Source of the DNA: Octopus vulgaris
Taxonomy: Eukaryota
Reading direction: 5' to 3'
Length of the DNA: 64,000 bases
Assembly: GCA_951406725.2 (NCBI GenBank)
Contig: OX597840.1
Coordinates: 28,830,001-28,894,000, forward strand
Made by a program: the position numbers and the translations under genes. The notes beneath the pieces are model-generated. The model was given only the letters and a program-made list of their open reading frames with translations, was not told the DNA's origin and searched no databases. This document shows positions 2,650 to 58,939 of the stretch, one piece after another (within the stretch, counting starts at the first letter, position 1; the number at the start of each line of letters is the position of its first letter).

Positions 2650-3070
2650 ATGGAAAAAAGTCAAGATAGAAAATGCTAATTTAATTTTATAAAAAACATT
2701 TCAGTACCGGTTTCAGTCATTGAGCCTTTTTCAACTGTAAGTATGGAAAACAATTAAATTTGGAAAAATTAAAAGAAAAGTTTTTTTAAAAGAATATTTG
2801 TTTAGTGTTCAAATGCACTATACAATTCACAATGACCTCGAACCCACAAGTGTAAACAAGAGAGACAGAGAAAGGCAGAAACAAGGAAAATGCCACTTGT
2901 ATTTGAACACTATACAAATATTCTTTTAAAAAAACTTTCCTTTTAATTTTTCTAAATTTAATTATTTAATTGTTACAGTTGAAAAGGTCTCAAAATGACT
3001 GAAACCGGTACTGAAATGTTCTTTATAAAATTATTTTAGCATTTTCTATCTTGACTTGTTTTTTCCATAT
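2650..3070. mobile_element. Fold-back element with ~165 bp inverted arms carrying a hammerhead-like motif; probable Penelope-like terminal remnant
   Basis: Arms ~2650-2817 and ~2897-3070 are diverged reverse complements, flanked by (TA)n. Confidence 0.7.
2976..3013 (+). ncRNA. Minimal type I hammerhead ribozyme candidate, U3-A8 core variant
   Basis: cag-TTGAAAA-ggtc(tcaaaat)gact-GAAA-ccg-GTA-ctg. Stems I and II pair and stem III is the palindrome accggt. Confidence 0.6.
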
Positions 3071-3147
3071 ATATCAACTCGTGTGTTCCTTTTCATCCTT
3101 ATACACATACACACACACATATATATATATATATATATATATATGTG

Positions 3148-3660
3148 CTATTTAGAGATAGTAGTCCCCGTCATCACACCATATAAAAGAATTTTAATTT
3201 AATACTTACTCCTCATTTCTAAATCTCTGCTACATGTGTTTCTTGACCTTCTTTTACGGTCAAGAATGCAGTCTTTTACAGGAACCTTTCTTAAAATGTA
3301 ACTCTTAATCATCAGGTCTCTAAATAACTTTACCATAGTTCGATACCAAATACTATATTTTAATTTTAACAGATAAGTATGCGTGTGTGCAAATAGATTC
3401 GCCGAACCTTACTGTGCAAGCCATAATTTACTGGTGAGTGTGTTAAATTATAAGGCACTATTTGGTATCGAACTATGATAAAGCTATTTAGAGGCCTGAT
3501 GACTGGGTTTACATTTTAAGAAAGGTTCCTGTAAAACACTGCGTGCTTCAGGAACCGTAAAAGAACCTCAAGAAACACGTGTAGCAGAGAAATGAGTAGT
3601 AAGTATTAAATTAAAATTCTTTTATATGGTGTGATGAAGGGGACTACTATCTCTAAATAA
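3148..3660. mobile_element. Fold-back element with ~205 bp inverted arms, each with a CTGATGA...GAAAC-4nt-GTA motif
   Basis: Arms ~3148-3352 and ~3456-3660 are reverse complements. Motifs lie at 3493-3586 (+) and 3228-3318 (-). Confidence 0.65.
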
Positions 3661-3981
3661 CATATATATTTATTATTGAGAATAATTTGAACCCCTGTGA
3701 TGCCAGAATTTTTATTCCCTAATAAATAAAATAATATATATATATATATATATATATATATATATATATATATAAATAGATGCATGTATTTTTCCCTTGT
3801 TAACAATTAACACGGAAAAAATAGATAAATAGTTACCAGTGTAGCAAAAAATCACACAATTAAAAAGGGCATAACATCTTATTTTTAAAGGTAGAAACTC
3901 CAGGTTTATGTGAAATATTGTGTATAATATATATAAATAAATAAATGGAGTTAAATGCAGATGTTATTCAAATGTTTTTAC

Positions 3982-4067
3982 TTCCAACACATGTTTCGAA
4001 GAAATCATTGGTATTATTCCAAAGGAATAAAATGGGTGTAAAACAATGTAATTTTCTCTTCAGGGAA
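3982..4067 (-). ncRNA. Type I hammerhead ribozyme candidate with extended stem II
   Basis: Minus strand: ttcc-CTGAAGA-gaa...cattg..ttattcc/ggaataa..caatg...ttc-GAAAC-atgt-GTT-ggaa. Confidence 0.6.
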
Positions 4068-4169
4068 ATGAAGAAATAAAACTAATCAATATATATTTAT
4101 GTTAAATAAAATGAGACAACAAAGCCAAGGCAGTGTGGAATTTTCAGGACATTTATAAAGAGGAAGTTA

Positions 4170-4217
4170 GCCTTACAGCTGTTTCTGGGATATTAGAGAT
4201 ATCCCCTCATCAGAGGC
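4170..4217 (-). ncRNA. Minimal type I hammerhead ribozyme
   Basis: Minus strand: gcct-CTGATGA-ggggatat(ctcta)atatccca-GAAAC-agct-GTA-aggc. Full core and palindromic stem III. Confidence 0.8.
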
Positions 4218-4699
4218 AATGTGAGATGGTTAAATGGAGAAAAATATCAGAGTTCAATATGAGGAGTTATTTTGGAAAAGGAAGCAAATAAGGAGTATAT
4301 AGAGAAATAGGAGAATGAACGTAGAAATAAAAAAGGAAAGGAAAATATATATAGATGTTATAGTTGCAGTTCCATAATCCAAGGAAAGTGGTGTGTAAAA
4401 GTGGTAGAAATGCTTCCTGTCTGTGGTATGATAATTCCAATAGAAGCTCATATTTTATTTCGTTTTTGGATTTGGTTTGCAAGATTCTTTATGTGAGTTC
4501 GTGTGTTGAAGCATGTTTTGTTGTGTCTGGGGAGAGTCATTTTCTTTTTGTGCCTTATAATGTAACACACTCACCGGTAAGATTTCCACTCATTTACTTA
4601 CTTATTTTTCTAAAATTTTCGTTGCGTCTTGCAACCTTTTCAATAGTTGTTGACTCTGTCCATTATCCAAGCTGTGTTCTTTTTGTTTGTTTGTGCGCA

Positions 4700-55674: not shown

Positions 55675-56295
55675 AGGCGCAGGAGTGGCTGTGTGGTAAG
55701 TAGCTTGCTTACCAACCACATGGTTCCGGGTTCAGTCCCACTGCGTGGCATCTTGGGCAAGTGTCTTCTGCTATAGCCCTGGGCCGACCAATGCCTTGTG
55801 AGTGGATTTGGTAGACGGAAACTGAAAGAAGCCCGTCGCATATATGTATATATATATATATATATATATATATATATATATATATATAGGCACAGGAGTG
55901 GCTGTGTGGTAAGTAGCTTGCTAACGAACCACATGGTTCCGGGTTCAGTCCCACTGCATGGCATCTTGGGCAAGTGTCTTCTGCTATAGCCCCGGGCTGA
56001 TCAATGCCTTGTGAGTGGATTTGGTTGACGGAAACTGAAAGAAGCCTGTCGTATATATGTATATATGTATATGTGTGTGTATGTCTGTGTTTGTCCTTCT
56101 AGCATTGCTTGACAACCGATGCTGGTGTGTTTATGTCCCCCGTCACTTAGCGGTTTGGCAAAAGAGACCGATAGAATAAGTACTGGGCTTACAAAGAATA
56201 AGTCCCGGGGTCGATTTGCTCGACTAAAGGCGGTGCTCCAGCATGGCTGCAGTCAAATGACTGAAACAAGTAAAAGAGTAAAAGAGTAAAGAGAG
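55675..56295 (+). mobile_element. SINE family A: a 5' half (55675-55850) followed by a full copy (55889-56295)
   Basis: Matches the family consensus. Confidence 0.9.
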
Positions 56296-56539
56296 TATCA
56301 ATAAATTGATCAATCATTGATACTGAACATGCCACAAGCAGCGCTGATTGATTTTCTTCCATTTCCAATTCCAACCAAATTCAACCTTGCTTTGACCCTT
56401 CTTTGGGTTCAATCAATCCGTTAGCTTTGATCTTTGGCTTGTTTCAGTCATTGGACTGTGGAGCCCATGCTGGAGCACTCCCTTGAATAGTTTTAGTCGA
56501 AGAAATTGACACCCTTTTTTTTTAAAGTTTGATACTTTT

Positions 56540-56961
56540 TCGCTCTTTTCTCTTTTACTTGTTTCAGTCATTTGACTGCGGCCATGCTGGAGCACCACCT
56601 TTAATCGAGCAAATCGACACCGGGACTTATTCTTTCGTAAGCCCAGTACTTATTCTATTGGTCTCTTTTGCCGAACCACTAAGTGACGGGGACATAAACA
56701 CACCAGCATCGGTTGTCAAGCAATGCTAGGGGGACAAACATAGACACACAAACACACACACACACACACACACACACATATATATATATATATATATACG
56801 ACAGGCTTCTTTCAGTTTCCGTCTACCAAATCCACTCACAAGGCTTTGGTCGGCCTGAGGCTATAGTAGAAGACACCTGCCCAAGGTGCCACGCAGTGGG
56901 ATTGAACCTGGAACCATGTGGTTGGTAAGCAAGCTACTTACCACACAGCCACTCCTGCGCC
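56540..56961 (-). mobile_element. SINE family A
   Basis: Matches the family consensus. Confidence 0.9.
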
Positions 56962-57094
56962 TATACTGGTTCTATCTGTTTTTTTTTCTTTTTTTTTTGC
57001 TGAACGGCTAAGGTATGAGGAAGTAAACAAACCAGCACCAGTTATTTTGTGTTGGGGTGATGCAAAAATAGGTACAAAAACACACACACATATC

Positions 57095-58075
57095 GGGCTT
57101 CACAGGGAGAATGGTGAAAGATTGAACCCTCTGGAGATATACTGTGATTGAGAAAACCTGGCAAGTAAAGTGGGGGTCACAGCCATAGCCTACACCAGTG
57201 TTGCATAACCAGCCCATTTAAAAAGTACCTTTGAATCATTGGGCAACACGCCGTGCTGAGGAGACCTATCAAATCACAATCAAATGGAAATTGTAGTTGT
57301 GGCCGATACCAGTGCTGCCTGACTGGCTCTTGTGCTGGTGGCACACAATAAGCACCATGCGTGTGTGGGTTATTGCCAGTACCACCCGACTGGCTCCCTG
57401 TGCCGGTGGCATGTAAAAAGCACCATCCAAACGTAGCTGATGGCAGTGCCCACTACACCCTCAGAGTGGTTGGCATTAAGAAGGGCATCCAGCTGTAGAA
57501 ATACTGCCAGATCAGACTGGAGCCTGGTGTGGCCTCCTGGCTTGCCAGTCTCCTGTCAAATAGTCCAACGTATGCCAGCATGGAAAACAGACGTTAAACA
57601 ATTATGATGATGATGATGATATATATATATATATATATATATAATGCATATATGGGTGCAGGATGCCACCAACAGTCAACAATATGAAATACGTAAACAA
57701 ATGAGTTACATTCACAAACAACAAGGGGAAAAATGGAAGATAGGACAAGTAACACAAAGAACAACCCTGCATCAGTCGTCAGCTGTCTATCTACTCGGCA
57801 TTTTGAGCATTGAATGATAAATATATATATATATATATATATATATATATATATATATATATATATATATATATGCAGGTGGCACGTAAAAAGCACCCAC
57901 TACATTCGCGGAGTGGTTGGCGTTAGGAAGGGCATCCAGCTGTAGAAACTCTGCCAGATCAGACTGGAGCCTGGTGCAGCCCCTGGCTTCCCAGACCCCG
58001 GTCGAACCGTCCAACCCATGCAAGCGCAGAAAACGGACGTTAAACGATGATGATGATGATGATGATGATGATGAT
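57095..58075 (+). mobile_element. Two RTE 3' UTR remnants (57095-57620 and 57876-58075)
   Basis: gagtggttggc.ttaggaagggcatccagctgtagaaa...aaacggacgttaaac followed by (GAT)n. Confidence 0.8.
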
Positions 58076-58387
58076 ATACACAAATAATATACATGCTATG
58101 TATGAAGTATATATATATATATTTAAATAATGAGGGAGAAAAATTAATATTAATTTAATTAACATCAATTTAAAACCAGTAGCCTAGCATACAAAAATCT
58201 GAAAAATCAAAGAAAATTCTAATACATGTGTATATTCAAAGGGCAAGACTGCTAGGTAGTCGGCCGTATGCTAGAAATAGATCACCAACGATCAAACTAC
58301 AAAGAATATTCTCTAGAGGAAAATTCAGCGAACACCAGAACAATTAGGCGGGCAAGACATGAAAATTGTATAAAAAACCAGAATTAC

Positions 58388-58463
58388 TCACAGACCGGCA
58401 GTTTCGTCTATTAACAAATGAATTACTTATATAATCCAATTGTCCGTAGATTCGTCAGTGCGA
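58388..58463 (-). ncRNA. Type I hammerhead ribozyme in a ~600 bp element (58121-58735)
   Basis: Minus strand: tcgca-CTGACGA-atcta...tagac-GAAAC-tgccg-GTC-tgtga. Confidence 0.72.
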
Positions 58464-58939
58464 TCGTTCCGACAGGTAATGCAATTTGCAAAACTAACCT
58501 CTGCTTTCTGTGCCAAAACAGACACATGTTTAGTTTTACCAATTACATTAGGAATAATTTCAAATGTCTTAGTTCTGGCGTGCTAAAAATTCCAGAAGCG
58601 AAGAACTGCAGTAAATAATTTACTGTGGTTAGTGCTGGCTACTAGAGAACGTATTTATTTCAATATTTAAATAATGAGGGAGATAAATTAATATCAATTT
58701 AATTAATTACTGCCCTTTGAATATACACATGTATATATATATATATATATATATATATATATATATATATATATATATATATATTTAGATTCAGATGAAT
58801 ATGGTACTTAAGTTGAGGCACCAGAATTTAGTACGGTATTATCCATACAATTTCAAAATAAGGTGATTAAAATCAAAATAAGCAACAAGGAAATCCAGAG
58901 GTAATGCAGTACAATCGTTTCAAGCAACTCCATTTAATT

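Follow-up and report, generated by a model that had tools for sequence, protein, structure and literature searches.

Penelope-like elements (PLEs) of metazoans carry minimal type I hammerhead ribozymes in their terminal repeats (pLTRs), and motifs of this kind recur through the stretch of the Octopus vulgaris genome considered here: 64,000 nt of GenBank assembly GCA_951406725.2 (contig OX597840.1, positions 28,830,001-28,894,000, within a 2.8-Gb genome), hereafter the window. In the sections of the published work consulted, to which our statements about each paper apply, the PLE hammerhead is described as having an extra base after A9, little or a palindromic helix III, and a U3-A8 variant (PMC4209133). 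The octopus motifs share the type I topology, the extra nucleotide after A9, the absent or palindromic helix III and the occurrence of U3-A8 families, and they also resemble the described set in numbering thousands of solitary copies, in forming opposite-strand pairs spaced by 100-700 bp, and in the many unrelated families per genome. They differ in that stem II of several octopus families is flanked by an unpaired base on each side, and in that one family carries an A6U core, which was met neither in the text of that paper nor in two of the three 'CUGU' passages of its supplement; cephalopods are absent from the supplement alignment.

The anatomy of endonuclease-positive (EN+) PLEs (Craig et al. 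2021, PMC8557442) also recurs, with 5' truncation, partial tandems, an inverted 5'-truncated arm, an optional tail, a (TA)n bias, a C-terminal GIY-YIG domain and a cysteine linker (here in families A, F and K), although the octopus tails reach 70-150 nt. Short truncated copies are the state described in both papers. The Anolis Poseidon PAc protein nicks AT-rich DNA, starts reverse transcription internally at two sites and uses uncut RNA as template, and its hammerhead cuts only with protein (PMC11167929). The mechanism proposed below may be likened to PAc in its internal start and tails, AT-rich nicking, uncut template and protein-assisted hammerhead, but the PAc hammerhead overlaps the start of the open reading frame (ORF), whereas those of the octopus lie within 3' untranslated regions (UTRs) of 0.3-1.3 kb. 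Retrozymes without long terminal repeats (non-LTR retrozymes), which have been proposed as non-autonomous PLE derivatives (PMC7229834; Li et al., 10.64898/2026.07.22.740005), consist of gene-less tandem units with one type I hammerhead each, as do three octopus families. Lastly, natural core variants (Perreault et al. 2011, PMC3088659) include U3-A8, U4C (as in many copies of octopus family I) and a change at position 6, of which the A6C hammerhead is slow but active; A6U is not in the text of that paper, and in the octopus it has become fixed in one family, which numbers at least 18,840 copies.

We put at about 85% the probability that the window motifs represent minimal type I hammerheads situated in the 3' terminal repeats of some dozen PLE families, that most window copies are 5'-truncated insertions of coding families, and that a Penelope reverse transcriptase (RT)/GIY-YIG protein likely copies three gene-less units (M, H and L) in trans. 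The A6U core of family K and the gene-less families M, H and L are new, and the rest fits published PLE biology.

Hammerhead motifs and the coding families that carry them

With a type I descriptor that accepted CUGANGA or UUGANAA cores and permitted one unpaired nucleotide next to stem II, the window gave 10 matches, compared with a mean of 0.45 and a maximum of 3 in 100 shuffles of the window in 500-nt blocks. Widened to CUGUNGA and CCGANGA cores (A6U and U4C) and to a 2-bp stem I, the descriptor gave 13 matches against a mean of 0.54 and a maximum of 4 in shuffled sequence, which bears out the population of motifs that an earlier sequence-only reading of this stretch had noted. The descriptor was loosened after the minimal hammerhead definition of PMC4209133, and was tuned with the window in view, the shuffles serving as control; a strict version demanding a perfect 10.1-11.1 pair (the first pair of stem II) found only 2 window motifs, and one tolerating a mismatch at that pair found 5, against 0.01-0.03 in shuffled sequence. 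The CUGANGA or UUGANAA, GAAA and UH core with stems I and II is present in 12 of the 13 passing motifs, as expected of the minimal type I hammerheads claimed in that reading, with the exception of K (A6U core at 40675); U3-A8 cores are found at 2979, 4643 and 22002. Helix III shows no dimer-palindrome mismatch in 9 of the 13 motifs, and in family H is a 4-bp helix. Local GC around the motifs is 0.19-0.39, and a (TA)4 tract follows 9 of the 13 at a distance of no more than 150 nt, a count that has no control for the TA-richness of the window itself.

Twelve of the 17 positions listed in the sequence-only reading pass (2976, 3493, 3982, 4170, 9246, 21997, 30640, 31624, 34292, 34792, 40671 and 58388), seven of them on the minus strand or with a variant core, which was left unsaid. 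The other five are decayed copies: an inverted arm with a broken stem I at 3228, a decayed second motif at 34121, and a trio with broken cores at 39460-39980. The motif at 4643 (minus strand) passes and had not been listed. Recognition by Rfam, offered as a check on the motifs, failed: the window scan returned no hammerhead among the 150 of 278 matches listed, and hammerhead families had no match at the gathering score in 11 family loci, the scans giving microsatellite matches only. Microsatellites are abundant across the window.

The hammerhead phenomenon is genome-wide and the window merely enriched. A sample of 60 evenly spaced 10-kb stretches (600 kb) held 22 standard matches, 2 or 3 of which look doubtful, against 3.1 in shuffled sequence, and 6 A6U matches against 0.4. 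The window density is about four times the genome average (10 per 64 kb versus 22 per 600 kb; Poisson P 1.7e-4), and extrapolation from the 600 kb gives roughly 90,000 standard and about 26,000 A6U motifs genome-wide.

Six of the 13 motifs (2979, 3496, 4063, 9324, 22002 and 40675) belong to 5'-truncated 3' ends of coding PLEs, and their families (A, B, C, E, F and K) carry the known PLE terminal hammerhead; two more (I and D) probably belong to coding PLE ends. For family assignment the genome was searched with each element and each locus, a best-scoring genome match, was walked upstream. Because the longer genomic copies of these families run upstream into PLE ORFs, with the endonuclease (EN) 0.3-1.3 kb upstream of the hammerhead on the same strand, the short window copies are truncated ends of coding elements. 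RT was observed upstream for A, C and K, and EN only for B, E and F within the retrieved flanks. Of 40 EN C-termini, 23 were followed downstream by a hammerhead in sense and 4 by one in antisense, many of these loci having been retrieved via hammerhead queries. The marks of PLE insertion found were 5' truncation, an inverted arm, an optional tail and a microsatellite target. The families presumably belong to the Neptune/Nematis and Penelope/Poseidon clades, labels that follow the linker motif. The features in the window of these families, and of the unplaced G and N, are as follows.

2644-3109, plus: family A insertion, 3' end of a coding PLE with a CX4CX2C linker
2644-2814, minus: inverted 5'-truncated arm of A; sense 3' end 2824-3070, optional tail to 3109
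2979-3010, plus: A hammerhead, U3-A8; mirror copy near 2700-2740, minus
3139-3743, plus: family B insertion, inverted pair with tail, 3' end of a coding PLE
3496-3583, plus: B hammerhead, 2-bp stem I; decayed mirror 3315-3228
3757-4091, minus: family C, 3' end of a coding PLE; hammerhead 4063-3986
4110-4233, minus: element D, a 73% relative of family I; hammerhead 4213-4174
4481-4680, minus: family N; U3-A8 hammerhead 4643-4613
9196-9383, minus: family E, 3' end of a coding PLE; hammerhead 9324-9251
21915-22173, plus: family F, 3' end of a coding PLE; U3-A8 hammerhead 22002-22038
30588-30748, minus: family G; hammerhead 30740-30644, inverted partial arm 31875-31941
34497-34917, plus: family I, inverted tail 34497-34702 and 3' end; hammerhead 34797-34840

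Family A copies form an inverted pair with variable arm lengths, and longer copies cross the 3' UTR into the CX4CX2C linker and GIY-YIG domain; a sense PLE ORF was found upstream in 3 of 24 copies and 4 of 20 extended loci, and locus L046 has a GIY-YIG match (PF01541) above the cut-off, E 1.4e-5. An AT-rich 3' UTR of about 1.2 kb precedes the hammerhead of family B, following the EN end in 4 of 30 second-step loci. In family C, EN and RT pieces precede the hammerhead on the sense strand at 9 of 30 loci, and at 4 more the ORF is in the inverted arm. EN lies upstream in 2 of 20 loci of family E and in 6 of 20 of family F, which is young, its copies being 97-99% identical. Family G is old (about 79%), its hammerhead decayed in the window and well formed in relatives, and 0 of 19 loci have an upstream ORF. 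Family I has EN upstream in 1 of 30 loci, and the hammerhead of element D has a compensatory stem I pair relative to family I.

Several observations concern these insertions. The B inverted pair is centred on a 31-nt piece of family N (3428-3458), probably the result of template switching as it inserted, and a near-perfect 100-nt hairpin at 43125-43255 matches the family F tail in both orientations, a tail-only inverted insertion. The arms of G (30588-31941) are split by later insertions, namely pieces resembling short interspersed nuclear elements (SINEs) and the M element, and include a 131-nt inverted segment that is 99% identical. A second subfamily-level core change, U4C, is seen in family I, where roughly half of the copies or more have it (e.g. 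L232-L260; 13 of 21 descriptor matches). Another cysteine-linker PLE family is represented by an unbroken 870-codon frame with RT and a GIY-YIG-like end (L040:4387-6996).

By published PLE work, the PLE endonuclease would nick AT-rich DNA, and RT would begin at alternative internal sites of an RNA exceeding one unit in length, which would produce the tail, and would usually stop early, leaving stumps of 150-500 nt. With only 50-300 nt between the hammerhead and the 3' end, such stumps would retain it. Cleavage would likely be slow, proceeding in dimers joined through the palindromic helix III or aided by protein, and is likely not needed every time an element inserts.

Family K and its A6U core

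The most abundant coding PLE family found, K, is represented in the window by one short copy and by a relic of its clade.

40612-40798, plus: family K, 3' end of a coding PLE; hammerhead 40675-40702, fixed A6U core
51296-52835, minus: K-clade relic, broken GIY-YIG region 52835-52251, 3' UTR to about 51933
51296-51530, plus: inverted pieces of the relic
51838-51925, plus: decayed K-type hammerhead of the relic

The GIY-YIG relic noted at 52 kb in the sequence-only reading is real, with 53% identity to a genomic PLE ORF (E 9e-49) over 52835-52251; it represents the coding parent family of the 40.67-kb motif, and a link from it to the gene-less families was not found. Within 1.5 kb upstream of 30 DNA-ranked K loci no ORF was present, and 4 of the 30 showed 72-79% identity to the UTR of the relic. 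Searching with the relic protein returned 5,093 candidates, and of 8 long-frame copies hand-picked among them 7 carry the K hammerhead at their end. The inverted arm of the relic also holds four exact 17-nt tandem repeats (51534-51599).

Exact pattern counts over the genome gave 18,840 copies with U6, 245 with A6, 566 with a changed G5 and 0 for reversed controls, so that U6 is as fixed as G5, and U6 was present in 45 of 45 K copies that had not been ranked by the query. Since long-frame copies carry U6, it is spread by coding masters; the 5' starts of K copies are dispersed. Related families in the 600-kb sample keep A6. N7 varies freely among the copies (A 18, U 15, C 6, G 5), as does H17 within its rule (A 29, U 10, C 4, G 1). 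In the other core and stem columns, 1 of 30 is polymorphic versus 24 of 54 in the flank (P 4e-5, with column classes set only after the table was seen). Variation confined to the two free positions of a hammerhead points to selection on the fold, which from these alignments has likely been kept by selection despite the change from A6 to U.

The role of the hammerhead in PLEs is debated, the cited papers reporting cleavage that is weak or protein-dependent and dispensable in vitro. The success of a family in which A6U is fixed offers a test of what selection acts on, catalysis or the fold alone. The change is predicted to slow cutting in the most abundant family. At not far short of even odds, the K motif is a dead hammerhead, its U6 fixed by drift in one master and its conservation due to a protein-binding or RT-related RNA structure or to short branches. 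Changes at A6 reduce activity, A6C cutting at <0.1 per min (PMC3088659), and hammerhead mutants do not block insertion in vitro (PMC11167929), both of which suit such a loss; against it, the positions that vary are exactly N7, with all four bases, and H17, with A, U and C and a G in 1 of 44, a rule specific to cleavage. Standard descriptors miss A6U hammerheads altogether. A literature search for an A6U or CUGUNGA core found none, the relaxed hammerheads of Terminons lying outside its scope, and the octopus hammerhead-ribozyme literature, judged by titles and the beginnings of abstracts, held nothing on these elements.

Gene-less units M, H and L, and the fossil tandem J

Only the motifs at 31629, 34298 and 58458 belong to non-autonomous, retrozyme-like mini-PLEs, of 0.47-0.56 kb; a fourth family, J, is a fossil retrozyme-like array.

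31305-31790, plus: family M, gene-less head-to-tail unit of about 0.55 kb; inverted arm 31305-31468, hammerhead 31629-31675
33989-34496, plus: family H, gene-less unit of 0.47-0.485 kb, one full monomer with inverted tail
34298-34349, plus: H hammerhead; decayed second motif at 34129
58108-58734, minus: family L, gene-less unit of 0.52-0.55 kb, monomer, tail and 24-nt inverted end; hammerhead 58458-58393
39407-40062, plus: family J, three tandem units of about 255 nt, 77-79% alike, each with a dead canonical-type hammerhead

No sense ORF was found upstream in 29 copies of M, 30 of H or 30 of L. The upstream walk closes instead on the unit's own tail and 3' end (M 8/29, H 20/30, L 19/30 copies), with periods of 468-485 nt for H (13 of 16 offsets), 517-553 nt for L (17 of 22) and 531-561 nt for M (3 of 7). 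The longest ATG frames in the units are 35-87 codons, and tblastn of the units against PLE proteins gave no match. Inverted arms (13 copies of M, 10 of H and 10 of L), optional tails (13, 11 and 10) and ends in TA tracts are insertion marks of the PLE machinery, and with the PLE ORFs upstream of the coding families they uphold the Penelope-type mobilisation suggested before. At locus L113 a chimeric insertion joins M sequence to an H unit. A short motif common to all three families is found some 40-50 nt upstream of their 3' ends and may serve RT as a recognition site.

Consecutive units with complete hammerheads occur in 3 of 30 L copies plus one trimer, in 1 of 30 for H and in 0 of 29 for M; the L trimer (contig C14) and dimers keep intact cores, so that the two consecutive hammerheads used to recognise non-LTR retrozymes are present in L and H at some loci. 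L has split into three subfamilies whose stems I and II show compensatory changes: the stems are 96% paired (slid controls 28-45%), and 27 cells in 5 pairs are altered on both sides (reached in 0 of 500 shuffles), a covariation among copies, as had been anticipated, that reflects about three subfamily events. M, H and L appear to work like the non-LTR retrozymes that Li et al. derive from PLEs, and their membership is provisional. They differ from those retrozymes in being mostly dispersed 1-1.5-mers with full PLE insertion marks, known here from their sequence, and pLTR homology to a coding family was not found for them in 1.9 Mb of loci. They would extend to an invertebrate the 2026 claim for vertebrates that retrozymes are non-autonomous PLEs, adding evidence at the level of insertions.

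Replication of M, H and L via self-cleaved circular RNA monomers, like that of canonical non-LTR retrozymes, is possible, somewhat less so than the loss of activity in K. The unit sizes, the head-to-tail permuted copies, the copies longer than one unit and the stable helix III of H and L all suit circles, but uncut read-through RNA from a partial tandem accounts for the same copies. Moreover, in 7 of 21 upstream partial units the 5' end lies beyond the preceding cleavage site, and in 0 does it coincide with that site. The template would therefore have been longer than one unit, and these 5' ends fit uncut read-through RNA or a circle and argue against a cut linear monomer. The joint proposal that K is a natural, still-cleaving and likely protein-assisted core variant, obeying the N7 and H17 rules across subfamilies and present in tens of thousands of copies, beside circle-templated mini-Penelopes M, H and L with their complete set of PLE insertion marks, is tentative and slightly more doubtful than circles by themselves. 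If it were true, the A6U family and the mini-Penelopes would offer matched natural substrates for hammerhead function in Penelope transposition.

It is unlikely that M, H and L are passive by-products, either gutted copies or local tandem duplications of a pLTR, with no propagation of their own. No coding partner was found in the 1.9 Mb of loci, L is a small family (139 exact 32-mer matches to the hammerhead region), and Li et al. (10.64898/2026.07.22.740005) describe local amplification of terminal repeats, all of which such an origin would explain. It would not explain the same unit junction at dispersed loci on many contigs, the subfamily-specific periods and compensatory changes, or the separate truncation point, inversion and (TA)n flank of each copy.

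None of 17 genomic relatives of J passes the descriptor, though together they outline a canonical-type hammerhead, and a tandem spacing of 255-333 nt is found at 5 of 17 listed loci, two of them in the window.

Weight of the evidence, and other repeats

Some results weigh against reading the motifs as PLE terminal hammerheads in mostly truncated coding families with three units copied in trans. The coding status of I hangs on one ORF-linked locus, and G and N are unplaced; Pfam gave no match for the EN fragments of B, C and I, and Atlas places that of B near GIY-YIG clusters with a weak recognition score. In ten families outside K, core columns are polymorphic in 2 of 110 cases and flanks in 128 of 2076, which is marginal (P 0.06), and stem columns (20 of 164) are no more conserved than flanks. 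Folding of the monomers gave nothing unusual (2 of 10 below z -2), with stem III mostly unformed. The loci were top-scoring matches and the H and L queries spanned most of the unit, a choice favouring full-length and tandem copies, and within the 1.9 Mb of loci, a 0.07% sample, no coding element was seen whose 3' end matches that of M, H or L. The late choice of column classes in K and the few events behind the covariation of L count on the same side.

The sequence-only reading held that most of these elements are independent non-autonomous ribozyme retroelements. All window copies are indeed short and non-coding, and that view fits M, H and L (3 of 13 motifs) and the fossil tandem J, but at least 6 of the 13 motifs are 3' ends of coding PLEs with endonuclease upstream. 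Families A, B, C, E, F and K continue upstream into PLE ORFs with 0-1 tandem junctions per 24-30 copies (A 0/24, B 1/30; for I, 0/30), and family matches in the 600-kb sample number 17 for K, I, B and C together (K alone 11) against 1 for M, H and L. Independence is thus largely refuted as a general account and very improbable, while its claim of many distinct families stands, about a dozen PLE families carrying the window motifs. That the inverted-repeat copies are miniature inverted-repeat transposable elements (MITEs) of DNA transposons, as terminal inverted arms within TA tracts might suggest, or that the motifs are chance matches, we reject as next to impossible, since arm lengths differ among copies, one end has a tail, copies run into RT/EN ORFs, and shuffles give at most 4 motifs against 13.

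The rest of the window elements are ordinary repeat annotation, mostly known. A 95-nt fold-back at 12943-13037, 88% self-complementary, comes from the end of a SINE-like repeat and has a sub-threshold Rfam mir-449 match. Probable reverse transcriptase fragments of RTE-like long interspersed nuclear elements (LINEs) lie at 7631-8149, 14623-15012 and 58938-59345, and fragments at 53595-54344 and 62594-63706 are presumably of Tc1/mariner-like transposases, judging by translated motifs. ORF fragments of a non-LTR retrotransposon at 22500-24815 are split by a long (AAT)n tract, and a 220-aa frame at 24153-24815 has a weak zf-RVT match.

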